The notes: generated by a model from the sequence alone, not told the origin. Numbered from the stretch's first letter, positions 1,233 to 23,651 are shown. The stretch is DNA of 25,618 bases from Bacteroidales bacterium (GCA_029942205.1 JAOZTL010000001.1:1-25618), one strand, 5' to 3'. Numbers and translations: made by a program.

Positions 1233-1302
1233 AGTATGCTCTGTTGTAAGGTCTTCGACCTATTTTTGTTCCTAATGAAGCGCATTGATTCAATATCGCG
1301 TA

Positions 1303-1310
1303 CAAAGATA
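1303..1310 (-). promoter_or_regulatory. Bacteroidota housekeeping promoter -7 box (TATCTTTG) upstream of lepA
   Basis: Matches TAnnTTTG, about 70 nt upstream of the lepA ATG; no clear -33 TTTG. Confidence 0.6.
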
Positions 1311-1356
1311 CCACTTTTTGATGGATTATTTATTATTGGAGATTTTATTTGTTTGG

Positions 1357-1460
1357 AATCCGACGTATCAAGATTCTACAGCAATCCGACGTATCAAGAT
1401 TCTACAGCAATCCGACGCATCAAGACTCTACAACAATCCGACGCATCAAGATCCTACGGA
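1357..1460. repeat. 26-bp tandem array AATCCGACGYATCAAGAYTCTACARC (units start at 1357, 1383, 1409, 1435)
   Basis: Exact 26-nt period read from the sequence; the fourth unit runs into the complete REP hairpin. Confidence 0.95.
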
Positions 1461-1520
1461 TGCTTGATGGTCTAGCAACACAGTAAGATATTGAAGCATC
1501 CGTAGGATCTTCAAGCATCT
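1439..1520. repeat. Inverted doublet of 35-bp REP-like hairpins (1439-1473 +, 1486-1520 -)
   Basis: CGAC G CATCAAG ATCCTACGGATG CTTGATG GTCT and an inverted variant with a CTTGAAG/CTTCAA stem. Confidence 0.85.
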
Positions 1521-1602
1521 GGACTTTAAGGAAAGACCGACGCATCATGGGCAACCATGAACGAGTTCGAAGCCACATCTTTTTTTTGCAATATTATATT
1601 TA

Positions 1603-2336: not shown

Positions 2337-2355
2337 GCTATCGTTTATTAAAAAA

Positions 2356-2476: not shown

Positions 2477-2491
2477 AGGGGTAGCTGATGT

Positions 2492-3130
2492 CTAATGTAA
2501 TAAATAGTCTTTGTATAGGGCGTTTCGTTTGTTTTTCCAAACGAGTTTGCCTATTGTCGAAAATTTTTCTCTCTTTTTTTTCAGTTCCATGCCGTTTTCT
2601 AGTCGGTTGGCTTGTGCTTGCTTGCGTTCTGATTTACGGACATTAACGACGCCTACGCTGTCGCTAAACCTTTTGATGCATTGTTTCAATTCGTCCAAAT
2701 CGCGTTGTTGAATGTTTCGAGCCTGCAACTCGCTCGAATAAATGGTAGCTGCATGATGTATTATACTGCTTTTCGGAACTAAATCTACTTCTTTGGTCTG
2801 AAGGTAGTTTCTTGTGCCAAAAAAATGGTAAGTCGCCGTATGGCTAGGATACAGACTTGCTACTCGCTGCATGATATATTTCATTTTACTCAATAGTTGC
2901 TTTTTGGCTTTGGCTTTTTCGGTATATGCTTTTTTCACCATAGCGAGGTATCGTTCATCATCCAATATTTCTTGATAATCGTTAATCAAAACGTGAAACT
3001 GAGCAATCGTCTCGTTTGTTATACTGTATGCCTTCAGTTCGGCGATGTCTCTTGCCAATATTTGTTCCATAAAACGGCATTCGGATAGTAATTCTGCTTG
3101 TGCTATTTGTAATCTTGCTTTTTTTTTCAT
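2492..3130 (-). CDS. Hypothetical helical protein (212 aa), resembling a Bacteroidota conserved hypothetical family
   Basis: Long ORF with ATG, amphipathic helical composition and a C-terminal ..YKDYLL motif recalled from similar Bacteroidota hypotheticals; no function recognised. Confidence 0.75.
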   Translation of the reverse strand: MKKKARLQIAQAELLSECRFMEQILARDIAELKAYSITNETIAQFHVLINDYQEILDDERYLAMVKKAYTEKAKAKKQLLSKMKYIMQRVASLYPSHTATYHFFGTRNYLQTKEVDLVPKSSIIHHAATIYSSELQARNIQQRDLDELKQCIKRFSDSVGVVNVRKSERKQAQANRLENGMELKKKREKFSTIGKLVWKNKRNALYKDYLLH

Positions 3131-3548
3131 TCTTGTTTTTTTTAAGGTCTCTCCTTTTGTGATGTTGCTTATGCAATTGTTTTTAATTTATCAATAAAAT
3201 ATATTTTTATAATAATTCAAAAACGAATAAAATAATTATACTGCAAATTAAAGTAAATAATTTATATTATCCAAATGTTTTTATGTATTTTTTTTCATTG
3301 ATAACACAAATTTAGTTCTATTTATTGTATTATTTGCCAAAACAAAGCCAAATAAGTCGTTCTGTAAGCCTTTATTTTGCTAGTCATACAGCATTTCTCA
3401 CTAAGGATCAACGGTTTTATTTATTGGCACAATAAATAAATAAAAAAGAACATGTATTACACCAATAAAAACAAAAGAATAGTCCATTAGATCTCTAAAA
3501 AAGCATCTCGAAACATAAAAAAGAGACTTTGGGACATAAAAAAAAAGG

Positions 3549-4036: not shown

Positions 4037-4038
4037 TC

Positions 4039-5755: not shown

Positions 5756-5756
5756 A

Positions 5757-5941
5757 AAGGTCTTGACCTTTTTGATGTTGCTTCCGCAAGATTTTCTATT
5801 TGTTTTTTATTGATAAGATGCATAAAAGTATTCGTTTCCATAAAATAAAAACAAAATAATTTGAAGATCTTGACCTTTTTGATGTTGCTTAGAAACGCAA
5901 ATCAAATAAGAGATGAGCAACATCAAAAGGTCAAAGACCTA
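5757..5941. repeat. Three copies of the dispersed hairpin-headed element (5757-5790 +, 5864-5891 +, 5915-5941 -)
   Basis: AGGTCTTGACCTTTTTGATGTTGCTT consensus; the minus copy begins with the TAG stop of the 5939-7276 gene. Confidence 0.9.
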
Positions 5942-7276
5942 GTTTAGTTCTTTCATTATTAATCGTACCATTAGGTTGTTGAGCATTTCCACTTGATAGC
6001 TCCCCACGGTAGGCTCTAGGTGCGATTCCCCTACTCCGCTGTCGTCGGTCAAGAAGATGTACGTTCCGTTGGTAGCCATCGCCACGAAGCGCATCAAGAA
6101 TTCGGTTTCTTTATTGATACCACTCGCCACGATAGGCATTATCTTGATACCTTTCATAGCAGCCATCTTGCTAGCTTTCTGCATACGTTGTTTGGAAGCA
6201 TCATTGTTGTGTGGTGGTGCATCCAAAATCAGAAATAATATTTTGGCAGTATTGCCTTTGCTCCATACTTTCGACTCGATGGCATTGACCAAAGCCTCAT
6301 CAACCGCCTCTGGAAAATCGCCGCCACCACCAGCATACTGTTTATTTAAGTTAGCAAGCACCTTGCTGATAGTGGTTTCGAAAGCAAAATCACGGATAAC
6401 GTAATCATCTTCATGATCTCGGTAAAATACCATGCCCACACGTGTCTTTAATTTGTTTGTTTTATTGTTCACTTTCTGTATGATGTCGTCCAGCTCTGTC
6501 TTCAAGAACTCCAGCTCATCGCTCATCGATCCCGTAGCATCTACCACAAACATAAGATCCAATTTGTTAGTTTTCTGCACCGCAGCCTCCATCGTAATCT
6601 CATGCATGCTTTTGGTTGTATTGATTTTAGCAATGGTTTTCGTTTTGCCATCAGCTGTTTGTAGCACTAAGCTCATCGATTTGGCATTCTTCTCGAATAA
6701 ATTTGCCCACAATTCGGCTTTCCCAAAGTTATCGGTTTGAGCTTGCCATACGACAACCCCTTTTTCGTTCTTCAATTTAGCCGTTACGTCTTTCAGCATT
6801 TCGCCTTTGCTATTCTTTACCACAATTCCCACACGAATAGTCGGCTTGAAATTCCATAGCGTGGGCATTCGCAGCCAGTCTTCGGAGGCAATTAACTTTT
6901 TCCAAAAGTCCCAATGCTTGAGGTCGTTCCACTCGCCAGCCGTAAGCAAACCAGCATCGCTAGTGGTGTTTTCGGCGGCAGGTTCTTCTTCTACAAGCAC
7001 AGTCTCTGTTTCGTCACTTAGCTCCATGTCTGCCTCGTCAGCAATATCATCTGCCACAATAGAAATCACTTCTTCTGCTTTTTCTTTTTTAGTCCGTTTC
7101 GCACTTTCGGTAGGTGCTTCTTCTGCCGATTCTACAGCGGCTTCCTCTACGGCTTCTTCAGTTACTTCTGCATCACTGTCATCGGTATAATCGCTTCCTC
7201 TCTCCATGCTGCTACATGCATAGAAAAACAAACTGATGATTAATAAACTTTGTGCAATCCATTTACTTGTTTTCAT
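5939..7276 (-). CDS. vWA-domain lipoprotein with an acidic linker and a probable carboxypeptidase-regulatory-like/Ig domain
   Basis: Lipobox FFYAC; E/A/D-rich N-terminal linker; MIDAS variant DATGSM; GGGDFPEA and ILDAPPH motifs. Confidence 0.88.
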   Translation of the reverse strand: MKTSKWIAQSLLIISLFFYACSSMERGSDYTDDSDAEVTEEAVEEAAVESAEEAPTESAKRTKKEKAEEVISIVADDIADEADMELSDETETVLVEEEPAAENTTSDAGLLTAGEWNDLKHWDFWKKLIASEDWLRMPTLWNFKPTIRVGIVVKNSKGEMLKDVTAKLKNEKGVVVWQAQTDNFGKAELWANLFEKNAKSMSLVLQTADGKTKTIAKINTTKSMHEITMEAAVQKTNKLDLMFVVDATGSMSDELEFLKTELDDIIQKVNNKTNKLKTRVGMVFYRDHEDDYVIRDFAFETTISKVLANLNKQYAGGGGDFPEAVDEALVNAIESKVWSKGNTAKILFLILDAPPHNNDASKQRMQKASKMAAMKGIKIMPIVASGINKETEFLMRFVAMATNGTYIFLTDDSGVGESHLEPTVGSYQVEMLNNLMVRLIMKELN

Positions 7277-7380: not shown

Positions 7381-7525
7381 AAAGCACTTCATGCTGTTTG
7401 ATATTGCTTACGCAAGTATGTAAGTACCTATGAAAAATTAATTGTATATTTACTTTTCGATAAATCATTGATTGTAATAGTTTTGCACAAGTGCGTAAGC
7501 AATATCAAAAAGGCGAAGGCTTTTA
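7381..7525. repeat. Convergent pair of the dispersed element (7381-7416 +, degenerate head; 7473-7525 -)
   Basis: TTTGATATTGCTTACGCA on both strands; the minus copy abuts the TAA of the vWA-OmpA gene. Confidence 0.85.
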
Positions 7526-10500
7526 TTTTGTTCCTTGTAGCATAATTTCGGCACGTCTGTTTTTCAATCGATTATCTTCGGTATCGTTCGGTGCAAGCGG
7601 CTGCGTAAGCGAATAGCCTATAATACTGAGTCTGTTGGTATTAATGCCATGACGAACAAAATAGTTGCGTACCGATTTGGCTCGTTGTTCCGATAAGGCT
7701 TGATTAAACGTCTGCGTGCCTTCATTGTCGGTATGCCCCGATATTTGGACATGTACGTCTTTATTTTTTGCCAGATAAGCCAACATGTTCTTCAGTTTCT
7801 TTTGTCCTTCGGTTGTTAATTGATAAGCACCAGTGGTGAAATTAAGTGTTGCAATTATTTCTCCTTGCTCATAGTCAAGCTTCGATAGTTTAAACGGGAT
7901 TCTTTCTTTCGGAATATCCAGTATCGACATAAATTCTACTTTTGCCTTTTCTGGTTTGTATCCCTTCTTGATGGCTTGCAAGGTACATGCTCTCCCAATA
8001 GGCACAGCGATAGAATAGTTTCCATCAGCTTTGGAGCTTACTCTACGAATAACGTGCCCCGAAGCATTATCAAAACAAACAACCATTGCCACCAAATCTT
8101 CATCCGTCAGTAAGTCTTTTACATTTCCTTTCACGGTCATGTACTTAGGAGCAATGCACTCGCCCACAAAAGTTACGGAAGCAGGAAAGTCAATGTTTTC
8201 AAAATAAATATTGATAGTAAGCGTGGTCAATCCTCGTTTATTGGGATTATACACCGATTTAAAATCTAGTGTGCGCCCAGGTAATATTTCTTTTCCAATC
8301 AATTTTTTTGGTAATCGAATTTGCCCATCGTTTTTTCCCAGCACTTCCACATAAACAACCTTTAAGTTTTCGTTGGATATATTTTCGACAACGGATGATT
8401 TTTTCGTTACAGCATGTTTTGGTTTGGTTTTACCAAAGTACACATAACTATTCGTTACCCGAAAAGGCTCAGGAATACCAATTCCAGCAATAATGGTTTT
8501 GAATGTTTTGGCTGGTGTTACCACCCACAGTTCGGCAGTTTTCAATCCTTTGCTACTTGGACGAAAAGCTAACTCTAAATTTTTAGATGTATTTGCAGCA
8601 ATCGTGTACGGCGCATGTCCCGATACAATGTGAAAATCAATAGAATCTTTTCCATGAATTTGAATACTGGTAACATTAGACGTAAACTTGCTGTTTTTAT
8701 TCGTTATTTCATTTTTGAAAACACCCGCTAAAGTGCGATTAACAAACACAGGCTTGAATGTGATGGGTTTCAAATTCAAATCGACCGACATGACCGAGAA
8801 GTTATTATTCGAAATATCTTGATAAAATCCCGTTTCATAAAACGAAACGACACCTAACTTATTTCCATTCAAAATTTCGATCATGTTCCGCTGGCTATGA
8901 TCGTAGACAGCCGCTACAATTTTCAAATCGGGTCGTGTGGGCATGGTTCTAATAAAATCCAAGTTTTTTCTTTTCCATATTTTAACCGCCTTGCTCGATA
9001 CGGTTATCATGTTGCGTGTATCTGGCGAGTAATCAACATAACGAATACCCTTTTGCTCGTTTTTAACGTTCTGCAATTCCTCTCCCATCCAATTCATCAC
9101 GACTAATTTGTTCTTATAGCAAAGTAGAATTTGTTTTTCCAGTGTCAAACGAAAATAGCCAATTCCTCTAGCCTTCATTATTTTATAAACTTCACCTGTC
9201 GTAGGACTCATCAAAAGTAATTTTCCTTTTGTGATGAGCATCAACGTGTCGCCTTTTGCATTTATCAATAATGCACGTGCGCCACCTTTACCCAATTTTA
9301 CTGTTTCTAATAGTTCGCCTGTAGCCACATCCCACGTTATCATTTTGTCATCACGTGCTACACTGATGATTTTACTGTTGTCGGGAGTAATGACGATGTC
9401 TTGTATGCGTTTTTTATGCCCTTTCAAATGAACAAACTTCAAGAAATCTGTTGGTAGCATTTGACTTACTTCTTGTCCTTTTTCGTCGTACACATAAATT
9501 ATGTTTCCAGCCGATACAGCTACCAAACTACCGTCATGACTGTACATGCTTTTACTTATTGATTCTCGTTCGTCATACAAGGTTTGGTATTTGGTGTATT
9601 CTTTGGTCAATAACGTTACACGATTCCTGCTCGTCAGCAAAAGCTTCGAGTTATCGTGGCTACGATTGATTTGAGATGTTCCTCGAATGAGCGGATAAAT
9701 TTTAGAAATACGAGCGTTGCTTTGTTCTGCTACTTTAACGATACAGCTATCACTCACCACACCTGGGATAATTACATGAGCACTACTTCCAGAGCCTACA
9801 CCGATTAAATCATAGGTTTCGCCACCATCGCTACTGAATGAAATATCGGTAAATGACATTTTATTTGCCGATTTCCATTTGACTTCTATGTGTTCTCCAG
9901 GCGAAAACTGTTCGCCTCCATTGGGATAAACAACTTTTAGCATTGATAAATTAGCAGGCACTTTATTGCGATCACCTGCCTGCAAAAACACCTCGGCATT
10001 GGAACACGCCTCACTCACCAAGCGCAAACGAGACCAATAAAACGAATCGGTTGGAGGAGTGTATTTAATATTAACGATCAAAACAGAATCTTGCTTTAAG
10101 GTAAAAGGCGCAGTTCTGTTACTTTCAAACGAAAAAGCCTCCTTGTTATTCAAAAGCATACTATCGACTACAAAATCGCCATTTCTTGCCGTAACTTTTA
10201 GTCGCATGTCTTGCGGTGTCAGGGCTGTGTCAGGCATTCCAAAATCATTGAAACTAGAGGAGAACACTGGTCGAATACGCACACTATCGGGCACTTCAAT
10301 ATCAAACTGTTCTACTTGCGATTGATAATCTAAATGTACTCGTTGCGTTTTATTACACGTAGGCGACAATTCCCATTCAATATCTCCGAAACTTGTTTTT
10401 TCAACAATCTGCAATATTTCCATGTAAGCATTAATCGCTTCACGGCTATTACTGATGTAATCAAAACTTTTTCCTTTCGTTTTTTTACTTATTTCACCCA

Positions 10501-11152
10501 ACGATTGTGGCATCGGCATGTTAATACTGACCGTAAAAATAGTAATTTTCTCTTTCAATGCAGCTTTAGTAATACTTTCGGCTTCGGCATATCCTAAACC
10601 ATCGGTAATGAAAATAATAACTTTATCATGATCGCCCCGCTTGGCTACACGTACCGCTCCGAGTGCTGTATTCATGAATGCTTCGTTATACTCCGTGCCG
10701 CCTCGTGCGTCCAGATTATCTACCGCAGTAATCAAATCTGATTGGTTTTGGCTAAAGTCTTCTTGCATGTAAGCTTGATGATCGAAAGACATGACAGCTA
10801 TTTCGGACAAATACAAAGGAGTTCGCATAATGAATTGCCGAGCGGCTTCTTTTGCCATTTCCATGTTTTCGCCATCCATCGATCCTGATACGTCCAGCAC
10901 CAATACTACCGATACGGGACGCACTTTTGAATCCTCAAACTCAGTTATTTTCACTTGCTTAACAAGTTGGTTATCTACACTGACTTTCAACTCACTTCTA
11001 TTCATTTTCAACAACTGCCCTTCGTCATCAAAAATAATATACTTTGCTTTTATTTTAGGATAATTATCATAATCAAAGCCAAAAAACTGAATATTTTGCC
11101 CCAAAGCGAATACTGGAAGGTACAAAAAAAGAATAAAGAATATTTTTTTCAT
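7523..11152 (-). CDS. Large secreted protein: vWA + Ig-like domains + WD40 beta-propeller + OmpA-like peptidoglycan-binding C-terminus
   Basis: Start moved to ATG 11152 (MKKIFFILFLYLPVFALGQ signal peptide); MIDAS DVSGSM; YPNGGE Ig-type motif; GHKKRIQDIVITPDNSKIISVARDDKMITWD WD40 repeat; ISGHTDNEG...NQALSEQRAKSV...NRRAEI OmpA domain. Confidence 0.9.
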   Translation of the reverse strand: MKKIFFILFLYLPVFALGQNIQFFGFDYDNYPKIKAKYIIFDDEGQLLKMNRSELKVSVDNQLVKQVKITEFEDSKVRPVSVVLVLDVSGSMDGENMEMAKEAARQFIMRTPLYLSEIAVMSFDHQAYMQEDFSQNQSDLITAVDNLDARGGTEYNEAFMNTALGAVRVAKRGDHDKVIIFITDGLGYAEAESITKAALKEKITIFTVSINMPMPQSLGEISKKTKGKSFDYISNSREAINAYMEILQIVEKTSFGDIEWELSPTCNKTQRVHLDYQSQVEQFDIEVPDSVRIRPVFSSSFNDFGMPDTALTPQDMRLKVTARNGDFVVDSMLLNNKEAFSFESNRTAPFTLKQDSVLIVNIKYTPPTDSFYWSRLRLVSEACSNAEVFLQAGDRNKVPANLSMLKVVYPNGGEQFSPGEHIEVKWKSANKMSFTDISFSSDGGETYDLIGVGSGSSAHVIIPGVVSDSCIVKVAEQSNARISKIYPLIRGTSQINRSHDNSKLLLTSRNRVTLLTKEYTKYQTLYDERESISKSMYSHDGSLVAVSAGNIIYVYDEKGQEVSQMLPTDFLKFVHLKGHKKRIQDIVITPDNSKIISVARDDKMITWDVATGELLETVKLGKGGARALLINAKGDTLMLITKGKLLLMSPTTGEVYKIMKARGIGYFRLTLEKQILLCYKNKLVVMNWMGEELQNVKNEQKGIRYVDYSPDTRNMITVSSKAVKIWKRKNLDFIRTMPTRPDLKIVAAVYDHSQRNMIEILNGNKLGVVSFYETGFYQDISNNNFSVMSVDLNLKPITFKPVFVNRTLAGVFKNEITNKNSKFTSNVTSIQIHGKDSIDFHIVSGHAPYTIAANTSKNLELAFRPSSKGLKTAELWVVTPAKTFKTIIAGIGIPEPFRVTNSYVYFGKTKPKHAVTKKSSVVENISNENLKVVYVEVLGKNDGQIRLPKKLIGKEILPGRTLDFKSVYNPNKRGLTTLTINIYFENIDFPASVTFVGECIAPKYMTVKGNVKDLLTDEDLVAMVVCFDNASGHVIRRVSSKADGNYSIAVPIGRACTLQAIKKGYKPEKAKVEFMSILDIPKERIPFKLSKLDYEQGEIIATLNFTTGAYQLTTEGQKKLKNMLAYLAKNKDVHVQISGHTDNEGTQTFNQALSEQRAKSVRNYFVRHGINTNRLSIIGYSLTQPLAPNDTEDNRLKNRRAEIMLQGTK

Positions 11153-11299
11153 TGGTCTGTAAATTATTAAATAGAATGGAAAGAATAAATTTGTAACGCA
11201 ATAATGCATTTCTTTATTTTCGTTCAATAAACAAAAAAACATTTTTTAACAAATAACAGACGAAGTCTGAACTGTAAATATACAGTTAATTTTGTTCGC

Positions 11300-12187: not shown

Positions 12188-12418
12188 ACTTCTACTTTAT
12201 CAAGTTAATATTAGTTGATTATTAGTGCATTATCTCCTTTTTACTTCAAGCTCAGATACCTTTTCTCACTTGAATATTTCGCTAAAAGTACGCTTTTTTC
12301 TTATTTCTTTTCTAAGATAATCTATAAAGTTATTAACAATTATGTTGTCTCCTTATATCATGGAAGGACTAATTACAACAAATCGAAATATTATTTTTGT
12401 AAAATTTAAGTCTCTAAG

Positions 12419-12449
12419 TTTGGTATTTTATTTTTGTTTCCTAACTTTA
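12419..12449 (+). promoter_or_regulatory. Putative Bacteroidota promoter (TTTG-N19-TAACTTTA) for the YbjN-domain gene
   Basis: -33 box exact, -7 box has one mismatch, canonical spacing. Confidence 0.45.
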
Positions 12450-12463
12450 CGGAACGAAATTTC

Positions 12464-12515
12464 TAAGGTCTTCGATCTTTTTTGATGTCGCTTACGCACT
12501 TATACAAAATATTAC
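12464..12515 (+). repeat. Dispersed element, long copy
   Basis: TAAGGTCTTCGATCTTTTTTGATGTCGCTTACGCACTTATACAAAATATTAC. Confidence 0.9.
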
Positions 12516-12578
12516 CAATAACTAATCACTCCACACAAAGGAGTCATTGAATTTCAATTACTTATAAAATTTAAACTC

Positions 12579-13016
12579 ATGAATAAGTATTCGATTTTAA
12601 CACTTATTATTTTATTTAGTCAAATAGGTTTAATCGCACAACAAGTACAAACGAAAGAAGTGTACACGTATGCCAACTCCACACTTATCGAAGATATAAT
12701 GACAGCCAAGGATATTGAGTTCGAAGCTTTGCAGTATAATCAATATAAAATAAAGCTAGGAAGGTACAACGTTTCGGTAAGTGTAGATGAAGGTGATTTG
12801 CTTTTAAGAGCCTATTTTTCGGGTGAGCCTACCTTGAACCGAATCAATGATTTCAATACTCAATACCGATGGGCTCGTGTGTATTTAGACAAAGATGGCG
12901 ACTTGACCATCGCTTCAGAATTGAGCTTCACTGGCGGAATAACAAAAGATGGCATCCATACGTTTATCAATACTTTTAAGGCTTTATTAGAAACATTATC
13001 CGAATTTATGGATTAG
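12579..13016 (+). CDS. YbjN-domain (type III chaperone-like fold) protein with an N-terminal signal peptide
   Basis: INDFNTQYRWARVYLDKDGDLTIASELSFTGGIT...FINTF pattern typical of YbjN; hydrophobic N-terminus ending LIA-Q. Confidence 0.78.
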   Translation: MNKYSILTLIILFSQIGLIAQQVQTKEVYTYANSTLIEDIMTAKDIEFEALQYNQYKIKLGRYNVSVSVDEGDLLLRAYFSGEPTLNRINDFNTQYRWARVYLDKDGDLTIASELSFTGGITKDGIHTFINTFKALLETLSEFMD

Positions 13017-13185
13017 GTCTTCGACCTTTTTGATGTTACTTACGTAATTGTACTAAATTATAGAAGTCAAAAGTAGAAAGAATTCTTGTTAATAGTCTTT
13101 TTTTTAGACTAAAACTCAAAAAGATCTTTGACCTTTTTGATGTTGCTTACGCAATTGTACTAAATATAGAAGTCAAAAGTAGAAA
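13014..13185 (+). repeat. Tandem pair of ~65-bp copies of the dispersed element (13014-13079, 13121-13185)
   Basis: Shared GACCTTTTTGATGTTRCTTACGYAATTGTACTAAA(T)TATAGAAGTCAAAAGTAGAAA; the first copy starts at the YbjN TAG stop. Confidence 0.92.
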
Positions 13186-13229
13186 AAATGTATCCATCTA
13201 AAATCGAAGCTCTTAAATTTTAACTCATT

Positions 13230-14639
13230 ATGTCTACAGAACAATTAGGCTCGTACATTGTTGCTTTTAGCGACTTGATGTGGGGTACACCTTTACTGGT
13301 ATTATTACTAGGCGGAGGCTTATTTTTTCTTTTTTATTCACGTTTAGCCCCCTTGTTGTATTTGAAGCATGCCGTGGAAATACTGATGGGACGCTACGAC
13401 GATCCGAATGAAATAGGACAAATCAATCACTACCAAGCTCTATCGACCGCCATTGCTGGCACGGTAGGCATGGGTAATGTAAGCGGCGTGGCTATCGCCA
13501 TCAGTACAGGTGGTCCTGGTGCAATGTTTTGGATGTGGGTGAGTGCCATGATTGGAGTATCTACCAAATTTTTTACCTGCACGCTAGCCGTTATGTATCG
13601 AGGGAAAGACTCGGCGGGCGAAGTGCAAGGCGGTCCGATGTACGTGATTCGTGAAGGCTTAGGTCGTCGTTGGCAACCGCTAGCTGTTTTCTTTTCTATC
13701 GTGGCCATGATTGGGGTAGCACCAATGTTTCAAGCCAACCAATTGAGCCAAATTCTACAAGACGTAATTCTAACCAAGAACGGCATTACTCCCTCTTTTG
13801 AGTCAAGTTTGATTGTCGGAATTATCATTGCTGTTTTAGTAGGGTTGGTTATTTTTGGAGGCATACAGCGTATAGGCGCAGTTACGGGTAAGTTAGTTCC
13901 ATTTATGGTGGTTGTTTATATCATTTCTGTTCTTTATATTCTGTTCAGTAATGTAACCGAAATCATTCCAGCATTTCAGTTAATTATTCACGATGCATTT
14001 ACTGGTGATGCATTATTGGGCGGCTCACTTGGGTCGTTGATAATCGTAGGAGTACGGCGTGCGGCTTTCTCCAACGAGGCAGGAATAGGCACTGCACCCA
14101 TGGCTCACGGTGCAGCCAAAACAAACGAGCCAATTCGTGAAGGGCTAGTAGCTATGCTGGGTCCTATTATCGATACCATCATCATTTGTACGATGACGGC
14201 TCTGGCAATCATCATTACAGGAGTTTGGGTGGAGTCTGATGCAAGTGGAATTACGCTTACCACCATGGCTTTTGAGCAAAGTATGCAGGGTTTCGGCTCT
14301 ATTCTTCTCACTATCAGCGTATCGGTATTTGCACTTACCACGCTATTTGCTTATCCTTACTATGGAACAAAGAGTTTTGCTTTCTTGTTTGGTGTTAAGT
14401 ACCAAAATATCTATAAGATACTTTACATTTTAGCGATTCCTCTCGGGACGGTTACTTCTCTAGGAGTTGTCATTAGTATTTTTGATAGTGCTTATGCTTT
14501 AATGGCTTTCCCTACCATGATTTCGGCTCTCCTTCTTGCCCCAAAAGTAAGAAAAGCAGCTAAAGTCTATTTCAAAAAACTAAAGTCTTCGACCTTATCA
14601 GAGCAGCTTGTTCATAAAAAGTCATCCTCTGACGAGTAA
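13230..14639 (+). CDS. Alanine/glycine:cation symporter (AGCS, AlsT/AgcS family)
   Basis: ALSTAIAGTVGMGNVSGVAIAI..GGPGAMFWMW, GGPMY, GVRRAAFSNEAGIGTAP and DTIIICTMTA motifs. Confidence 0.95.
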   Translation: MSTEQLGSYIVAFSDLMWGTPLLVLLLGGGLFFLFYSRLAPLLYLKHAVEILMGRYDDPNEIGQINHYQALSTAIAGTVGMGNVSGVAIAISTGGPGAMFWMWVSAMIGVSTKFFTCTLAVMYRGKDSAGEVQGGPMYVIREGLGRRWQPLAVFFSIVAMIGVAPMFQANQLSQILQDVILTKNGITPSFESSLIVGIIIAVLVGLVIFGGIQRIGAVTGKLVPFMVVVYIISVLYILFSNVTEIIPAFQLIIHDAFTGDALLGGSLGSLIIVGVRRAAFSNEAGIGTAPMAHGAAKTNEPIREGLVAMLGPIIDTIIICTMTALAIIITGVWVESDASGITLTTMAFEQSMQGFGSILLTISVSVFALTTLFAYPYYGTKSFAFLFGVKYQNIYKILYILAIPLGTVTSLGVVISIFDSAYALMAFPTMISALLLAPKVRKAAKVYFKKLKSSTLSEQLVHKKSSSDE

Positions 14640-14827: not shown

Positions 14828-16378
14828 ATGAACCAACAAGCAACATATAAAGAATTAAAAGATGAATTAGAATTAATAAAAAAAACTAACGATTCTAAAT
14901 TTTTAATTAATCTAGCAGGCGTTATTTTTATAGAGATAAATGCCAAAGGAATAGTAACATTGGTAAATAAAAAAGCCTGTGAAGTATTCGGATATACCGA
15001 AAACGAGATGTTGGGTAAAAACTGGTTTGAAGCATTTATCCCCGAACGAATACAAAAAGAGATACTCCCGATTGCCGATAAAATACTCCGAGGCGAAATA
15101 GAATCGGCAGAGTATTATGAAAATCCGATACTCACCAAAAGCGGCGAAGAAAGACTTATTTACTGGCACAATGCAGCGATATACAACTCGGAGGGAGATA
15201 TAATTGGGCATTTGAGCTCTGGCGAAGACATAACCGAACGTAGAAAAGCAGAAAAAAGCTTACAAGAAAGCAAAGACCGCCTATCCATAGCCTTACTTGC
15301 AGGAAACAGTGGTATTTGGGATTGGGATATTCAGAAAGGAGAGGTTTTTTTTGATGAAAATTATTTTCTTATTGCAGGCTACGAACCAAATGCTTTCCCA
15401 CATACGTATGAAGAATGGAAAAAACGAGTACATCCCGACGATCGTGAAATTTCAGAAAAGAACGTAAACGATTACATCAGTGGAGTAGCCGATGAATATG
15501 CTTCAGAGTTTCGTTTTAAAACAAAAGATGGAGATTGGATGTGGATGATTGGTCAAGGAAAAATAACACAGTACGATAATACGGGTAATCCGATTCGTTT
15601 TATAGGCACACACACCAATATTGATAATAAAAAGAAATCAGAACAGTCCTTGATCGAGCGAGAAACACAACTAAGAGAAAGCAATCAGACCAAAGACAAA
15701 TTATTTTCGATTATAGCCCACGATTTGCGTAGCCCATTTAGTGGCATCATAGGCTTTGCAGGGCTATTGCTTGAAAATAATGCAACGTATAATACAGAAA
15801 AACGAAAAAAACTCATCGACACAATTCTGTTTAGTTCTCGAAAAACATACAGCCTCTTACAAAACTTACTGGAATGGTCGATGGCACAAACGAATAAAAT
15901 CAACTATAAGCCTGAGACACATGATTTGCAACAAATATTTGAAGATACGATCGATCAACATCAAAGTAGAGCAAGTGCTAAGGAGATTCAATTGCATCAC
16001 GTGCTAAAAGAGAAATTTGAAGTACACGCCGATTTGCATATACTACACACCATACTTCGCAACTTGCTGTCTAACGCCATAAAGTACACCCACTCTGGCG
16101 GGCAGATTACCTTAAATGGACAAAAGGACAAAGACGACTCCGTTATTATTTCGGTACAAGACTCTGGCATAGGCATCAGTGAAGCGCAACAACCACATAT
16201 TTTTAAATTAGCCGACAAACAAACGACCGCCGGTACTGAAAATGAAAAAGGTAGTGGGCTTGGCTTGGTTTTAAGCAAGGAATTTGTTGAAAAACACTAC
16301 GGAAATATTTGGGTGGAGAGTCAAGTGGGCGTTGGCTCTACATTTTATTTCTCTATCCGAAGCAAAAATGCAGACTAA
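14828..16378 (+). CDS. Cytoplasmic PAS-PAS sensor histidine kinase
   Basis: Two PAS/PAC domains (EDITERR; GIWDWD...VHPDD); H-box FSIIAHDLRSP; N-box NLLSNAIKYT; DSGIG and GSGLGL G-boxes; no transmembrane segment. Confidence 0.95.
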   Translation: MNQQATYKELKDELELIKKTNDSKFLINLAGVIFIEINAKGIVTLVNKKACEVFGYTENEMLGKNWFEAFIPERIQKEILPIADKILRGEIESAEYYENPILTKSGEERLIYWHNAAIYNSEGDIIGHLSSGEDITERRKAEKSLQESKDRLSIALLAGNSGIWDWDIQKGEVFFDENYFLIAGYEPNAFPHTYEEWKKRVHPDDREISEKNVNDYISGVADEYASEFRFKTKDGDWMWMIGQGKITQYDNTGNPIRFIGTHTNIDNKKKSEQSLIERETQLRESNQTKDKLFSIIAHDLRSPFSGIIGFAGLLLENNATYNTEKRKKLIDTILFSSRKTYSLLQNLLEWSMAQTNKINYKPETHDLQQIFEDTIDQHQSRASAKEIQLHHVLKEKFEVHADLHILHTILRNLLSNAIKYTHSGGQITLNGQKDKDDSVIISVQDSGIGISEAQQPHIFKLADKQTTAGTENEKGSGLGLVLSKEFVEKHYGNIWVESQVGVGSTFYFSIRSKNAD

Positions 16379-16430
16379 AGTCTTCGTGCTTATTTTTAGT
16401 TTAACAATCATTATTCTCCTTATTTTTCAG

Positions 16431-16551: not shown

Positions 16552-17508
16552 ATGCAAGAGTCTATATTCAAAGAACTACTGATAGAAGCGGTCAAGCGCA
16601 AACTAAAGAACAGAAAAACCAAAATACCTTCGGAAGAATTTGAGACCGAAGTGCGTCAAACAAAGGTGGAGTTGATTCATATTGTACATGATATGTTTTT
16701 CATTGCATTAGGAATACTTGCCGCAGGCTTTGGTCTGAAAGGTTTTTTGCTCCCCAATATGTTTATTGATGGAGGCGTAACGGGTATATCTCTTATTGTG
16801 AATAAATTAAGCGATTTACCGCTTTCTATACTTTTGTTTATTATCAATTTACCGTTTATCATCATGGGGTATTCGAGTATCAGCCGCCAATTTGCTTTTC
16901 GTAGCATTATAGCCATTATGTTGCTGGCTGTTACTGTTCATTTTGTCGAATTTCCGATTATTACAGACGATAAATTGCTGATTGCTGTTTTCGGTGGATT
17001 CTTTTTGGGTCTCGGCATCGGATTGAGCATGCGAGGCGGTGCGGTGATTGACGGTACAGAGGTATTGGCAATATTCATCAGTAAGCGTACACCGTTCTCT
17101 ATTGGTGATGTTATTCTACTGTTTAATGTTTTTATCTTTGGTGCAGCTGCCTATGTGTTTACTATCGAAGTAGCATTATATGCCATGCTTACTTATCTGG
17201 CTGCTGCCAAGACGGTAGACTTTGTGGTGTCGGGTATCGAGGAGTATGTGGGTGTTACTATTATTTCGGATAATAATGAAGCAATACGTTTGGCTATTAT
17301 CGATAAACTAGGGCGTGGTTGCACGATATATTCGGGGCGTGGAGGTAAAGATCAAGAGGAAATTGACATCATTTACACCTTAATCACTCGGTTGGAATTG
17401 CCTAAACTGCATACGGAGGTGGACAAAATCGATGAATCGGCATTTTTGGTCATGCACAGCATCAAAGACGTAAAAGGAGGAATGATTAAGAAAAGAAATA
17501 CACACTAG
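16552..17508 (+). CDS. YitT family membrane protein (with DUF2179 C-terminus)
   Basis: FLLPNMFIDGGVTGISL, GGAVIDGTEVLAI and GRGCTIYSG motifs; ATG 16552 preferred over TTG 16468. Confidence 0.92.
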   Translation: MQESIFKELLIEAVKRKLKNRKTKIPSEEFETEVRQTKVELIHIVHDMFFIALGILAAGFGLKGFLLPNMFIDGGVTGISLIVNKLSDLPLSILLFIINLPFIIMGYSSISRQFAFRSIIAIMLLAVTVHFVEFPIITDDKLLIAVFGGFFLGLGIGLSMRGGAVIDGTEVLAIFISKRTPFSIGDVILLFNVFIFGAAAYVFTIEVALYAMLTYLAAAKTVDFVVSGIEEYVGVTIISDNNEAIRLAIIDKLGRGCTIYSGRGGKDQEEIDIIYTLITRLELPKLHTEVDKIDESAFLVMHSIKDVKGGMIKKRNTH

Positions 17509-17714
17509 GTATTCGCCCCCACTTGATAAGCACCTATAAAAAATTAATTGTATACTGAAATGCTATCATGATTATGAATTTAAAACGTTTCTTTTCTACC
17601 TGTTTTCACTCATAAAATTATTCCATAACACAGGCTATGCAAGAATTTTATGAATAAAAACAAATAAAAAATAATTCATTTTCTAAATCACAATTATAAC
17701 AGCAATTCAGTATA

Positions 17715-19022
17715 TTATTCAATTCTTTTGATTTTCGCACCAATTGCATTTAGTCTAATGTCAATATTTTCATACCCACGATCTATTTGTTCAATATTGT
17801 GTATCATACTTTTTCCTTTGGCCGAAAGAGCAGCAATCAATAACGATACGCCTGCTCGTATATCGGGCGAGGTCATGGTAGTGCCTCGCAAAGCAAGTTT
17901 TCTGTCTAAGCCTATTACTGTGGCTCGATGCGGATCACACAAGATTATTTGTGCTCCCATGTCTATTAGTTTATCGACAAAAAACAAACGACTTTCAAAC
18001 ATTTTTTGATGAATCAACACACTTCCCTTTGCTTGCGTAGCAACTACAAGTAATACGCTAATCAGGTCGGGGGTTAGTCCAGGCCAAGGCGCATCGGCGA
18101 TGGTCATGATCGATCCGTCTATAAATGTTTCTATTTCATAATTTTCGTGTTTGGGTATAAAAATGTCATCATTAATTCGTTCTATCTTTATACCTAAACG
18201 TTTAAATGTTGCTGGTATTATGCCTAATTTATCGAAAGCTACGTTTTTTATCGTAATTTCCGATTTGGTCATTACTGCCAAGCCTATAAAGCTTCCTATT
18301 TCAATCATATCAGGCAAAACGGTGTGCGATGTTCCGTGCAACGATTTTATGCCATCAATCTGTAATAAGTTAGAGCCAATGCCACTGATTTTTGCTCCCA
18401 TGCTATTCAGCATCAAGCATAACTGTTGGATATAAGGCTCACAAGCAGCATTGTAGATGCTCGTATGCCCTTTGGCAAATACGGCTGCCATCAGAATGTT
18501 AGCTGTGCCCGTTACCGATGCTTCTTCTAGGAGCATATCCGTGCCATGTAGCTGCTTTGCGCTGGCTTGATAAAAGTGTGTTTCGTCGTCGTAATGAAAA
18601 CTTGCACCTAGTTTTTGAAAGCCTTCAAAGTGAGTATCTAAACGCCGCCGACCTATTTTGTCGCCACCTGGTTGTGGAATAAATGCTTTTCCGAATCTTG
18701 CCAATAATGGTCCCACGATCATTACCGAACCCCGTAAACTTGCTCCTTGCGTTTTGAATGCATCGCTGGTAAAATAATCCATGTCGATGGAATCTGCACG
18801 AAATGAAACCGTTCCTTTTTGTTTTTTTTCCACTTTTACTCCCATGTTTGCTAATAAGTCGATTAGCTTATTGACATCAAGGATATTTGGAATATTGTGA
18901 ATTAAAACCTCATCGGGAGTCAATATCGTGGCGCATATTATTTGTAATGCTTCATTTTTAGCTCCTTGTGGGTGAAGTTCGCCTTGTAGACTTAGTCCGC
19001 CTTCTATTTCAAATGCACTCAT
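17715..19022 (-). CDS. murA: UDP-N-acetylglucosamine 1-carboxyvinyltransferase
   Basis: GAKNEAL, LRGSV..GPLLARFG, PGGDKIGRRRLDTH, SVTGTANI, AACEPY, SPDIRAG and DRGYENI motifs. Confidence 0.98.
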   Translation of the reverse strand: MSAFEIEGGLSLQGELHPQGAKNEALQIICATILTPDEVLIHNIPNILDVNKLIDLLANMGVKVEKKQKGTVSFRADSIDMDYFTSDAFKTQGASLRGSVMIVGPLLARFGKAFIPQPGGDKIGRRRLDTHFEGFQKLGASFHYDDETHFYQASAKQLHGTDMLLEEASVTGTANILMAAVFAKGHTSIYNAACEPYIQQLCLMLNSMGAKISGIGSNLLQIDGIKSLHGTSHTVLPDMIEIGSFIGLAVMTKSEITIKNVAFDKLGIIPATFKRLGIKIERINDDIFIPKHENYEIETFIDGSIMTIADAPWPGLTPDLISVLLVVATQAKGSVLIHQKMFESRLFFVDKLIDMGAQIILCDPHRATVIGLDRKLALRGTTMTSPDIRAGVSLLIAALSAKGKSMIHNIEQIDRGYENIDIRLNAIGAKIKRIE

Positions 19023-19033
19023 TCTTTTATTTT

Positions 19034-19847: not shown

Positions 19848-19891
19848 TAAGGTCTTTGATCTTTTGATGTTGCTTACGTTAAAACATCAAA
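19848..19891 (+). repeat. Dispersed element followed by an inverted tail remnant
   Basis: TAAGGTCTTTGATCTTTTGATGTTGCTTACG...AACATCAAA. Confidence 0.85.
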
Positions 19892-20016
19892 TCTTCCGAA
19901 ACTTGAGGACATTTGATCGTCTGGTTTTAGTCTAATCCATACGATCGAATGTTCCCAGCAAACTGTACCAATCGGGGGGATATTAAATTATGGGTAAAAA
20001 TCGCACTTAAAAATAT

Positions 20017-20129: not shown

Positions 20130-22427
20130 ATGACAAACTACTTGGATGAATTAAACGACGTACAGCGGCAAGCGGTGGAGCAAACCACTGGCGCATCACT
20201 CGTAATTGCTGGCGCAGGATCGGGCAAAACCCGAGTATTGACTTATCGAATTGTACATCTGCTGAATCAGGGAGTTCGCCCAAGCAATATTTTGTCTCTC
20301 ACGTTTACCAACAAAGCGGCACGTGAAATGAAAGAACGTATCGCCTCCATCGTTGGTGAAGAAACGGCTCGCTACATCTGGATGGGAACATTTCATTCTA
20401 TTTTTGCCAAAATATTACGTATCGAAGCCGAAGCGATAGGCTATGCCTCTAACTTTACGATTTACGATGCCGATGATTCTAAGAATTTGATCAAAAATAT
20501 CATTAAGGAATTTAAGCTCGACGATCAAGCCTACAAACCAAATGTGGTATTCAGTAGGATTTCGCAAGCTAAAAACAATTTGGTTACCGCTCAAGCTTAT
20601 GCTGCCAATCCACGTTTAGTGCAAATTGATAAAAGCACAAAAACACCCGAAATTCATCAAATTTACAAAACCTATGCCCAACGATGCTTTCAGTCGGGCG
20701 TAATGGATTTTGATGATTTATTGCTACAAACTAATATTTTGTTTCGCAATAAGCCTGAAATATTGAAAAAATACCAAGATAAATTCAAATTCATACTCGT
20801 AGACGAGTACCAAGATACCAATTCGTCGCAGTATTTAATCATCCGAAAACTATCGGAAACAAATCAAAATATATGCGTGGTAGGCGATGATGCACAAAGT
20901 ATTTATTCGTTTCGGGGTGCGAAAATTGAAAATATTCTGAACTATCAAAAAGATTATCCAAATTGCCACGTTTTCAAGCTGGAACAGAATTACCGTTCGA
21001 CACAAAACATTGTAGATGCAGCCAATAGTATTATTGCAAAGAATAAACATCAGATACAAAAGCATGTTTTTTCGGAGAACAGCAAAGGCAAGCGAATAAA
21101 AGTAATTCAAGCGGTTACGGATGTTGAAGAAGGTTATAAAGTAAGTAATGACATCATCGAAAAGCATTTAGGGAATCATTATGATTTCAAGGATTTTGTG
21201 ATTCTATATCGCACCAATGCTCAATCTCGAATATTTGAAGAATCCTTGCGCAAACGCAATATTCCGTACAAAATTTATGGCGGATTATCGTTTTATCAAC
21301 GCAAAGAAATAAAAGACTTATTGGCTTATTTTCGGTTTATTGTCAATCAGCGTGATAGCGAGGCGCTCAAGCGAATTATTAATTACCCGAAACGAGGAAT
21401 TGGCGTGGCATCGGTTGGCAAAATCGAGCAGGCTGCCCGAATGGCAGAAACAAGTATGTGGGAGGTCATTACCAATTTAGCTTCATTTAATCTAGGATTT
21501 ACCGCCCGTACAATCAATCCGTTGCGTGAATTTGTGGGCTTAATATTATCGCTCATTCGTGAACAAGAACAAAACAATGCCTATGAAATGGCATCGATGA
21601 TTGCCTCCAAATCGGGTATTCTCAAAGGTCTATACAGCGACACAACCCCCGAAGGCGTTAGCCGATACGAAAATGTACAGGAATTGCTCAACGGAATAAA
21701 AGAGTTTAATAGCCAAGCCGAAAGCAGAGACGAAATTGCTACGCTTTCTCTTTACATGGAAGACGTTGCCCTGCTTACCAGCGACGACAAAAACGACAAA
21801 ACGGATAACAATCGAGTAGCTTTAATGACAATACACTCAGCCAAAGGGCTTGAGTTTAAAAATGTTTACATCGTAGGGGTCGAAGAAAACCTGTTTCCAT
21901 CCTTGCGAAGTGTAGGCTCGCAAAGCGAAATAGAGGAAGAACGGCGACTGTTTTATGTAGCAGTAACTCGTGCCGAAGAACACTTGAGCATTTCGTTTGC
22001 CAAATCCAGATACAAATGGGGACAGCTATACGATTGTGCCCCAAGCCGATTTATTACCGAAATAGACGAACTGTATGTCGATTTGCCCGAAAATGAATCA
22101 TTTGAAGAACAAAAAGAAACGCCTTCTTATAGCTTTAATAAACGTCCTGCGGCAAACAAAAAAACAAACTTATCAAGTAGGCGAGTAATCAATACCCAAC
22201 GGGCACAAAAAACAAATCCGGCAGCGGCATCCAACTTTACGAGTGATGATCCGAATAAACTAGAAATAGGTATGAATATTGAACATCAGCGTTTTGGAAA
22301 AGGTTTTGTAGAGGATTTACAAGGCGAATTTCCTAACAAAAAAGCAACCATCGTTTTTGAAAAAGAAGGAACAAAATTATTGTTGCTCAAATTTGCTAAA
22401 CTAAAAATACTTAAAGAACATAAATAA
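20130..22427 (+). CDS. pcrA: ATP-dependent DNA helicase, UvrD/PcrA family
   Basis: AGAGSGKT, TFTNKAA, LVDEYQDTN, VGDDAQSIYSFRGA, LEQNYRS, TIHSAKGLEF, EEERRLFYVAVTRA; C-terminal HQRFGKG Tudor-like domain. Confidence 0.95.
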   Translation: MTNYLDELNDVQRQAVEQTTGASLVIAGAGSGKTRVLTYRIVHLLNQGVRPSNILSLTFTNKAAREMKERIASIVGEETARYIWMGTFHSIFAKILRIEAEAIGYASNFTIYDADDSKNLIKNIIKEFKLDDQAYKPNVVFSRISQAKNNLVTAQAYAANPRLVQIDKSTKTPEIHQIYKTYAQRCFQSGVMDFDDLLLQTNILFRNKPEILKKYQDKFKFILVDEYQDTNSSQYLIIRKLSETNQNICVVGDDAQSIYSFRGAKIENILNYQKDYPNCHVFKLEQNYRSTQNIVDAANSIIAKNKHQIQKHVFSENSKGKRIKVIQAVTDVEEGYKVSNDIIEKHLGNHYDFKDFVILYRTNAQSRIFEESLRKRNIPYKIYGGLSFYQRKEIKDLLAYFRFIVNQRDSEALKRIINYPKRGIGVASVGKIEQAARMAETSMWEVITNLASFNLGFTARTINPLREFVGLILSLIREQEQNNAYEMASMIASKSGILKGLYSDTTPEGVSRYENVQELLNGIKEFNSQAESRDEIATLSLYMEDVALLTSDDKNDKTDNNRVALMTIHSAKGLEFKNVYIVGVEENLFPSLRSVGSQSEIEEERRLFYVAVTRAEEHLSISFAKSRYKWGQLYDCAPSRFITEIDELYVDLPENESFEEQKETPSYSFNKRPAANKKTNLSSRRVINTQRAQKTNPAAASNFTSDDPNKLEIGMNIEHQRFGKGFVEDLQGEFPNKKATIVFEKEGTKLLLLKFAKLKILKEHK

Positions 22428-22428
22428 A

Positions 22429-22645
22429 TAAGCTCTTCGCCTATTTGATATTGCTTATGCACTTGTGTATACTAAAATCCTCTGATTGATGTAGTTTCAG
22501 TTTGCTGTTCGTAGTTTGGAAACTACGACCCAAATTTTGTCAAATTTTAATCAATCCAATAAAAGATTTTGCTAATGAAGGAGATTGCTTATCTTTGCAG
22601 GATCAAAAAAGTCGAAAACCTTAACATCAAAAAGGTCGAAGACTT
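22429..22645. repeat. Dispersed element copies bracketing the pcrA-era intergenic region (22429-22477 +; 22602-22622 and 22623-22645 -)
   Basis: TAAGCTCTTCGCCTATTTGATATTGCTTATGCAC; AACATCAAAAAGGTCGAAGACTT. Confidence 0.85.
22568..22597 (+). promoter_or_regulatory. Promoter TTTG-N18-TATCTTTG for era-der
   Basis: Exact -7 box at 22590-22597 and TTTG at 22568-22571. Confidence 0.65.
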
Positions 22646-22666
22646 CAAATTATATATTTTTTGTAC

Positions 22667-23545
22667 ATGAATAAACACAAAGCAGGTTTTGTAAACATCA
22701 TAGGCAATCCCAACGTAGGGAAATCGACCTTGATGAACGCTCTGGTAGGCGAACGCATATCGATTATCACCTCCAAATCACAAACCACACGTCATCGTAT
22801 TATGGGAATTGTTAATTCCGATGATTTCCAAATCGTATACTCCGATACGCCTGGCGTACTCGATCCGCAATACAAATTGCAAGAATCGATGATGAAATTT
22901 GCCTCATCGGCGCTTACCGATGCTGATATTATTTTGTATGTTACCGACGTATACGAAACATTTGACAAAAACCAAACATTCCTGGATAGAGTCAAAAAAG
23001 TAGAAGTTCCTGTATTTTTGGTATTGAACAAAATTGATATGTCGGATCAAGAAAAGCTAGAAAAGCTTATCGACTTATGGCAAAAAGAAATTCCACATGC
23101 AACAATTTTTCCTATTTCGGCATTAGAAAAATTCAATACCGACAATTTATTGACCAAAATAGTAGAAACATTGCCAGAAAACGAAGCATATTTTCCAAAA
23201 CATCAATTAACCGATAAAAGCGAACGTTTCTTTGTATCGGAAATTATTCGAGAAAAGATACTCGAAAACTATAAAAAAGAAATTCCATATTCGGTAGAAA
23301 TCGAAGTGGAAGAATTTAAGGAAGAAGAAAATATCATCCGTATACGTGCCATTATTTATGTAACTCGTGATTCGCAAAAAGGCATTATTATTGGACACAA
23401 AGGCGCTGCTCTCAAACGAGTAGGCACACAGGCACGAAAAGATATGGAAGTCTTTTTTGATAAAAAAATATTTTTGGCAACACATGTAAAAGTGAACAAA
23501 GACTGGCGCAATAAACCAAAATCACTAAAAGATTTTGGATACTAG
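22667..23545 (+). CDS. era: GTPase Era
   Basis: [30 protein letters not shown] and KH-domain SQKGIIIG; ATG 22667. Confidence 0.98.
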   Translation: MNKHKAGFVNIIGNPNVGKSTLMNALVGERISIITSKSQTTRHRIMGIVNSDDFQIVYSDTPGVLDPQYKLQESMMKFASSALTDADIILYVTDVYETFDKNQTFLDRVKKVEVPVFLVLNKIDMSDQEKLEKLIDLWQKEIPHATIFPISALEKFNTDNLLTKIVETLPENEAYFPKHQLTDKSERFFVSEIIREKILENYKKEIPYSVEIEVEEFKEEENIIRIRAIIYVTRDSQKGIIIGHKGAALKRVGTQARKDMEVFFDKKIFLATHVKVNKDWRNKPKSLKDFGY

Positions 23546-23651
23546 GTCTTTGACCTTACTTAATTGATAATTGATAATTTTGCTTTCGCCTTATCTACAT
23601 GTAATAGTTTTGCATAAGTGCATAAGCAACTATAAATAGGTCGAAGACCTA
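23543..23651. repeat. Inverted pair of the dispersed element spanning the era-der gap, TA at both ends
   Basis: TAGGTCTTTGACCTT (23543) ... TGTAATAGTTTTGCATAAGTGCATAAGCAAC...TAGGTCGAAGACCTA (23600-23651). Confidence 0.88.

Follow-up and report, generated by a model that had tools for sequence, protein, structure and literature searches.

Introduction

To judge by how its copies behave, the repeat reported here stands closest to the Correia repeat enclosed elements (CREE) of Neisseria and to the repetitive extragenic palindromic (REP) elements. CREE can create promoters at their ends, and their transcribed long stems are bound or cut by RNase III, altering the expression of neighbouring genes (PMC2649163). 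Here we analyzed a stretch of 25,618 nt from an uncultured Bacteroidales bacterium (GCA_029942205.1 JAOZTL010000001.1:1-25618), hereafter the window, in which a preliminary description made from the sequence had listed 19 occurrences of a hairpin-headed motif. With a probability of about 0.6, we take this motif to be the left end (LE) of a non-autonomous, copied (mobile) family of DNA repeats, the right end of the repeat unit being called RE. The window is the entire contig C1 of the draft genome G000, one of the five out of 401 Bacteroidales genomes, belonging to four families, that host the element (G000, G015, G075, G142 and G204).

CREE occur between genes in hundreds of ~100-150-nt copies with TA at their ends; a TA tip is found here too, together with outward-facing TAnnTTTG boxes and inverted pairs predicted to fold at about -30 kcal/mol. 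CREE, however, are built of two 26-bp inverted ends and a fixed core, whereas the present element is asymmetric, is found mostly as single LEs and has a covarying hairpin at its tip. REP, BIME and REPIN sequences share with it a short hairpin, an intergenic location, copy numbers in the hundreds, single, tandem and inverted-doublet arrangements, a frequent position past stop codons and compensatory changes. The differences are that a 5-bp stem and a non-palindromic core replace the 20-40-nt imperfect palindrome of REPs, that the head begins with TA(A)GG and has no GTAG or CGTC tag, that doublets have no fixed spacing, and that no gene for a REP-associated tyrosine transposase (RAYT) is flanked by copies, none being detected in G000. 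Liang and Deutscher reportedly found in 2015 that REPs near stop codons affect translation.

Non-autonomous derivatives of IS200/IS605, known as palindrome-associated elements, resemble the element in their asymmetric ends, terminal hairpin and lack of a clear target-site duplication, and insertion beside a short fixed word, here TA, would fit; no TnpA/TnpB partner was found here (PF07282 in none of the five hosts, Y1 genes unlinked), and the RE hairpin is weak, with none convincing. Among Bacteroidota, MITE464/BrickBuilt of Porphyromonas gingivalis (PMC4596501) and an IS982-derived element of Cardinium (PMC9769881) are described MITEs (miniature inverted-repeat transposable elements). Like the present repeat, they are small, non-coding, spread within genomes and break assemblies; unlike it, they are bounded by terminal inverted repeats that can be traced to a parent insertion sequence, and a literature search with sequence strings gave no likeness between them and our element. 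ERIC/IRU sequences and the Rickettsia palindromic elements are comparable in that positions at or inside gene ends are tolerated or exploited and last codons are rewritten, but they differ in sequence, size and symmetry, and the Rickettsia elements lie in frame inside genes whereas here the element ends the gene.

The element thus described did not show the features that define IS630 MITEs, REP/RAYT systems or intrinsic terminators. Sequence-string and topic searches of the literature found no description of it, and in Rfam there was no match at the gathering score over the whole window and none at E<=1 for positions 12400-13300. We judge it to be a real, very abundant and undescribed MITE/REP-like family that belongs to a known kind of selfish DNA and does not amount to a new type of biology, its unusual traits being its gene-border habits and its LE-anchored form. 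Its anatomy, abundance, position rules, sublineages and patchy distribution, reported below, are direct observations.

Abundance and Anatomy of the Repeat Unit

G000 derives from a hydrothermal vent and is a draft of 3.47 Mb in 567 contigs, with 34.5% G+C and 77% completeness; it is the sole member of its own family in the genome collection, and the identity of its Der protein to those of Bacteroidales and Flavobacteriales relatives does not exceed 71%. Copies were scored with a covariance model of the first 49 nt of the element, trained on copies from the window and from metagenomes (cut-off in the window E<0.01), and with nhmmer profiles. Genome-wide, G000 contains 403 strict hairpins, 768 core motifs and, at E<0.1, from 1,103 to 1,322 profile matches divided evenly between the strands. 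The proposal of a dispersed, non-coding repeat family behaving like copied DNA is supported. With about 1,200 copies over the genome, the family is not confined to the window, where a strict 21-mer pattern matched three times against 0.08 expected and at least one copy lies in 12 of the 16 inter-ORF gaps (read from the ORF list). The 1,322 matches cover 2.5% of G000 and about 10% of the DNA outside a crude set of open reading frames (ORFs), inside which only 6 of the 403 strict hairpins fall.

Alignments of 117 long copies, of inverted pairs and of copies from other genomes gave an asymmetric unit of about 100 nt. In the LE, TA(A) is followed by a 5-bp hairpin (AGGTC-TTC-GACCT), then by a T-run and a conserved core of ~15-20 nt, and lastly by a small second hairpin, whose arms vary by subtype yet seem complementary throughout (by eye). 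A variable body follows, of two main subtypes in G000, and the RE consists of an exact TAnnTTTG box facing outward and then ~12 nt terminating in CTTA; the two ends have only TAAG...CTTA in common. The consensus given in the preliminary description was thereby found correct. With a full-length profile, 1,202 copies started at the LE, about 250 of them extending to the RE and about 950 being LE-only, and about 45 copies comprised an RE without LE; the family is therefore LE-anchored, RE-only pieces being ~20-fold rarer than LE-only ones.

Among neighbouring copies within 400 nt, 115 pairs had their heads outward and 7 inward, and 71 + 62 were in tandem, in agreement with the earlier remark that the left edge of a gap is where plus copies lie and the right edge where minus copies do. 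Some 80% of copies stand unpaired; in the ~20% that are paired, heads are 73 to 400 nt apart and the two arms are often of different subfamilies. Tandem arrays have periods of ~30 nt and ~105 nt. On contig C81 of G000 we observed a minisatellite of head and core, with at least four tandem ~30-nt units directly past a stop codon.

A single LE is predicted to fold at about -5 kcal/mol (-4.6 to -6.3; z -0.7 to -1.4), no better than its shuffles, whereas inverted pairs reach -29 to -32 kcal/mol (z about -6). The stem itself is maintained by covariation: two-sided changes were found in 5 of 6 pairs, a kind of count that related copies inflate, and the covariation score was 0.169 against 0.088 in shuffles (0 of 500 reached the observed value) and at most 0.06 in slid controls. 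Compensated stem variants are common.

The Element Writes Stop Codons and Precedes Start Codons

The crude ORF set (ATG-first, at least 100 codons) comprised 2,248 genes, in 333 of which (~15%) the TA(A/G) of an element overlaps the stop codon. The junctions were TAA|GGTC in 63 cases, TAG|GTC in 27, TGA|GGTC in one and TAG|GGTC in none, in a genome where TGA makes up 12% of all stops, and from these counts it follows that the stop codon is built from the element. About 27% of copies are located at stop-codon TAs, which represent 2.3% of the TA sites outside ORFs. Proteins ended by an element fall short of their orthologs by a mean of 1.1 residues (range of the difference -11 to +3), so that truncation of the C-terminus is only slight. 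Stop-codon usage in G000 is in part a repeat artefact; at least 27 of the 423 TAG stops are written by the element by strict match, perhaps ~70.

At the other end of genes, a head lies 5-25 nt before the ATG in 152 genes (~7%), most often at 13-18 nt, where the distances peak. Having a head at the stop and having one at the start are independent, 24 genes having both against 22.5 expected, and a gene cassette bracketed by inverted LEs was rejected because start and stop heads fall on one gene at this chance rate. The head was also considered as an intrinsic terminator and rejected, in view of the weak fold of single LEs and their equal occurrence upstream of starts; canonical terminators located downstream of the element at several loci likewise argue that the head is not one.

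As for the promoter-like boxes, exact TAnnTTTG motifs in the unit form one forward peak at 85-89 (89 copies) and one reverse peak at 40-44 (55 copies). TAnnTTTG is the -7 promoter box of Bacteroidota. Boxes were found 57-70 nt upstream of der, era and lepA, and the LE would therefore belong to the leaders of these genes; at all three genes a copy stands between the promoter-like box and the start codon, and this part of the earlier interpretation is supported. Only ~30 of 141 full units had, within 40 nt of the RE, an ATG on the same strand. The boxes may drive neighbouring genes, and heads or inverted pairs may shape mRNA ends. A sigma-54 promoter in the core was considered and discarded, no match to a -24 element being seen by eye.

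Descent and Distribution Across Genomes

The bodies of the 117 long copies group into subfamilies, and the stem variant GCAC/GTGC is linked to the linker TATT and the core TAAT (Fisher p 1e-13 to 1e-16). Like the two-sided changes in the stem, these sublineages point to spread by copying and away from a conserved regulatory site. Outside G000, the LE was counted ~1,000 times in G015, 23-26 times in G075 and G142 and twice in G204, and six metagenome contigs carry it; no match was obtained in viral contigs and plasmids. Its 40 nt are nearly identical across hosts while loops, bodies and REs are lineage-specific, and the lineage specificity that had been supposed is not supported, the LE being present in four families.

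Positions are mostly unshared, and comparisons between genomes speak for insertion and against inheritance from an ancestor. In 67 ortholog pairs of G000 and G015, stop sites were common in 3 cases and not in 17, and start sites in 2 against 21. The comparison of orthologous gaps that had been suggested did yield short ones: the era-der gap measures tens of bases or fewer in most of ~60 relatives, often ~17-20 nt, against 123 nt in G000, with a pair of LEs inside it, and 361 nt in G015. Between der and the lipoprotein gene, by contrast, G000 has only an empty gap of 24 nt, while that of G015 is filled. In the era-der region of G015 (contig C656) we also observed a head at the der stop with the 5-bp stem variant GGCTC/GAGCC, and short tandem TGTATCATTGAATAAT-like words upstream of era.

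Sequence words of the organism were found in one of three listed public runs, a DNA run of a hydrothermal-vent metagenome, in its contigs only. No RNA run for the organism was among the public runs checked, and look-ups of exact proteins for strain variants returned nothing on record.

Search for a Partner Enzyme

The transposase flanked by the same ends that had been anticipated was not encountered. Neither a DDE_3 (IS630) gene nor PF01797 (Y1/RAYT) was present in the G000 assembly; insertion sequences, however, would be missing from this assembly, since it is 77% complete and in 567 contigs. In the other hosts, the DDE_3 genes of G015, G142, G204 and G075 had no LE at their flanks, and the Y1 genes were not flanked by the element either. 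The co-occurrence of Y1 genes with the element is uninformative because 115 of 151 genomes of the order (76%) have them, and a RAYT link was discarded on this ground. TnpB was absent from all five hosts. Reverse transcriptase genes occur in all five host genomes (counted in these five), unlinked to the element, and no dispersed repeat of at least 400 nt was found in the G000 assembly.

Two of these genes deserve a separate remark. In G142, the contig that carries the IS630-type transposase (C220) looks, judged by eye, much richer in G+C than the contigs bearing the element, and may be foreign to that genome. On contig C362 of G000 (200-1658) we observed a stand-alone reverse transcriptase of 427 aa whose sole domain is RVT_1. 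The stretch in front of it could, judged by eye, be a structured non-coding RNA, and we note the locus as a possible retron-like defence unit.

Origin of the Family

If the family consists of copied DNA, its copies would persist where they are least harmful. A head against the end of an ORF would offer the TA(A/G) of its own LE as stop codon, and a head in the opposite orientation would stand just outside the ribosome landing zone, ~13-18 nt before the ATG; most copies would be LE-anchored truncations of the ~100-nt unit, spread by an enzyme acting in trans. With regard to the mechanism, we tentatively favour, at rather less than even odds, a hairpin-recognising single-strand process (HUH-like) over cut-and-paste, because the terminal hairpin covaries and the ends are asymmetric. 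Several observations weigh against mobility as such. We saw neither a transposition event nor an empty-site allele nor a target-site duplication; the contigs of the sole public DNA run with the organism gave repeat-induced joints only and no empty alleles; searches of the host genomes found no partner enzyme; and the gene-border counts were made on a crude ORF set. Furthermore, the near identity of the 40-nt LE in four families with only ~69% Der identity fits strong functional constraint as well as it fits horizontal spread, and survivorship alone does not let us derive either the tenfold surplus of copies at stop codons or the narrow peak 13-18 nt before starts, which may indicate targeting or a selected function. 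A bolder version of mobility would have the LE aimed at gene borders by a hairpin-recognising mobilisation system, based on single-stranded DNA or on RNA, which rebuilds the stop and carries outward promoters, making intergenic 'stop plus promoter' cassettes and hairpin caps at both mRNA ends, the system itself having moved horizontally between four Bacteroidales families; we consider it unlikely.

Selection by the host would account for some of the same observations. According to this explanation, which we regard as rather unlikely, the hairpin is a cis-acting cap that marks or protects mRNA ends (3' past the stop, 5' at 13-18 nt before the ATG), is processed at the T-run or core or in the duplexes of inverted pairs, and was spread by recombination or gene conversion as something useful. 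Heads do face the ORF at both gene ends on either strand, compensatory changes keep the stem, four families have an almost identical LE, copies at stop codons exceed the TA-site expectation tenfold, and the long stems of inverted pairs would suit RNase III, as described for Correia elements (PMC2649163). The core, however, has opposite reading senses at stops and at starts, and its conservation cannot be explained by one reader at the RNA level; sites are mostly unshared between the two host genomes compared, 396 of the 401 genomes of the order live without the element, the neighbouring genes have no common function, and linked sublineages, tandem arrays and truncations resemble copying rather than site-by-site selection.

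How copying took place is a further matter, and the preliminary description had suggested a MITE derived from an IS630/mariner transposon. In such an IS630/Tc1-mariner cut-and-paste element, what transposes and duplicates TA would be the inverted pair (head...head), and single copies would be decayed halves. A TA stands at every LE tip, 115 pairs have their heads outward, IS630-type genes occur in other host genomes, and at two loci, era-der in G000 and der-lipoprotein in G015, removal of the pair and of one TA leaves a stop and a gap of ~16-27 nt like the empty gaps of relatives. This explanation is nonetheless quite improbable: only ~20% of copies are paired, with lengths varying from 73 to more than 300 nt and arms often of mixed subfamilies; conservation between genomes concerns the asymmetric LE...RE unit, which is no palindrome; RE-only fragments are ~20-fold rarer than LE-only ones; DDE_3 was not found in G000 and is nowhere LE-flanked; and a hairpin kept by covariation is unexpected for a double-strand terminal inverted repeat. 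The base past the partner's TA restored a stop in 54% of class-A pairs and in 49% of other pairs, and insertion of a pair or full unit as one TA-duplicating event into an old stop was not supported, restoration being at the level of the controls (49-53%). The TA that had been noticed at both outer ends of the era-der pair is indeed there, but it is not readable as a target-site duplication, because TA is a fixed part of the LE. Copying through RNA, in which transcripts running from the internal boxes to the head are reverse-copied from the head end and the far end is cut short, would agree with the LE-anchored length spectrum (1,202 copies with LE whose far ends spread continuously, ~45 RE-only), with promoter-like boxes aimed at the head, with the terminal hairpin and with the reverse transcriptase genes of all five hosts. 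We consider it highly improbable, since no reverse transcriptase is linked (that of G000 looks stand-alone with its own upstream RNA, the nearby LE belonging to the neighbour gene), neither a poly-A tail nor another priming signature was seen, and the ends of local alignments may mean divergence rather than truncation. To our knowledge, an RNA-mediated retroposon-like mechanism is not established in bacteria.

With a repeat-written stop in ~15% of genes and an element in the leader of ~7%, annotation, TAG-use statistics and operon prediction are shaped by selfish DNA in such genomes. The family offers a clean case in which to ask if small repeats accumulate at gene borders through targeting or through survival, the 40-nt LE, so similar in all four families as to be nearly identical, may serve to track down the mobilising enzyme, and the element accounts for the poor assembly of these metagenome-assembled genomes.

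Copies in the Window

A head or a remnant of one was located at all 19 places listed in the preliminary description. Thirteen were recovered by the covariance model (3142+, 5756+, 5864+, 5941-, 7381+, 7525-, 12464+, 13013+, 13120+, 19848+, 22428+, 22646- and 23652-) and nhmmer weakly added 1247+, whereas five are head-only remnants unscored by any model (14581+, 16376+, 17506+, 22622- and 23543+), that at 17506+ being doubtful. The features are given in Table 1.

Table 1. Copies, remnants and internal boxes of the repeat in the window (CM, covariance model).
Feature	Position	Strand	Evidence and remarks
Weak LE copy	1247..1310	+	nhmmer E 0.012; head 14 nt from lepA-like start (ORF 3..1232, minus)
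TATCTTTG box within 1247+ LE copy	1303-1310	minus	box search
LE copy, hairpin degenerate, core intact	3142..3190	+	CM 37.2 bits, E 1.2e-7
Solo LE copy	5756..5803	+	CM 36.1 bits; nhmmer
Short inverted LE pair (5864+ / 5941-)	5864..5941	.	CM matches; ORF end
LE copy, damaged GCAC-type stem (GCAC/ATGC)	7381..7429	+	CM 52.7 bits
Near-full unit (LE, body and most of RE)	7434..7525	-	nhmmer 64.8 bits, model 3-92/100; CM 58 bits
Internal TAGTTTTG box of 7434..7525 unit	7478-7485	+	points antisense into OmpA/vWA gene 7523..11242
LE copy and second small hairpin	12464..12522	+	CM 61.2 bits; nhmmer 37 bits
LE copy, TAG = stop of YbjN-like gene 12579..13016 (Pfam YbjN)	13013..13077	+	CM 62.7 bits; ORF end
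LE copy, tandem with 13013+, 107-nt spacing	13120..13168	+	CM 64.5 bits
Head-only remnant, out of frame, in last codons of alanine symporter ORF 13230..14639	14581..14595	+	sequence only
Head-only remnant, TAA = stop of histidine kinase gene 14828..16378	16376..16392	+	sequence; ORF end
LE copy truncated past core	19848..19894	+	CM 30.7 bits; nhmmer
LE copy, begins 1 nt past TAA of UvrD-like gene 20130..22427	22428..22476	+	CM 55.1 bits
Two tandem head units	22616..22647	-	CM 23.3 bits; nhmmer; sequence
TATCTTTG box upstream of 22616..22647 heads	22590-22597		box search
Head-only copy, TAG = stop of era (22661..23545)	23543..23560	+	sequence
LE copy, head 16-17 nt before der ATG (23669)	23600..23652	-	CM 63 bits
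Internal TAGTTTTG box of 23600..23652 copy	23605-23612		aimed at der

The head of 3142+ is 12 nt from the start of the minus-strand ORF 2492..3130, and the outer head of the tandem at 22616..22647 ends ~14 nt before the era start (22661). At gene ends, the head of 5941- gives the TAG stop of a vWA gene (5939..7276, minus strand), that of 7525- directly adjoins the OmpA/vWA gene at its stop codon (7523-7525), and a minus-strand box at 13068-13075 is aimed antisense into the gene whose stop the element provides. One long hairpin each is predicted for the pair 5864..5941 (-28.6 kcal/mol, z -6.25) and for 23543+ joined with 23652-, which together fill the era-der gap (-32.4 kcal/mol, z -5.6). Era of G000 ends exactly at FGY, while most relatives have 1-4 extra residues.

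In the alanine symporter ORF, the out-of-frame head-like sequence (14581-14639) falls within the last 19 codons, and of the 469 residues the Pfam domain extends to about residue 454; from this sequence, the tail of the protein may be translated from element-derived DNA.

Other Repeats in the Genome

The sequence at 17506 had been taken for an internally deleted mini version of the element, which is not supported: on visual inspection, the reverse complement of an RE variant, joined to another repeat family, matches the 3' part of this sequence. A second, longer palindromic family, at 17520-17620, begins TATACTGAA(A/T)TGCT..., measures ~200 nt by eye and is found at many G000 contig ends, for example those of C138, C145, C203 and C485. 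Public contigs pile up at it, with a word depth of 667 at 17266-17879 against ~8 elsewhere. A third family of ~150 nt, containing GGAACATAAATTAAATAAGCTAT..., lies at the ends of contigs C45, C73, C128, C223, C332 and C388, and G000 accordingly holds several distinct repeat families.

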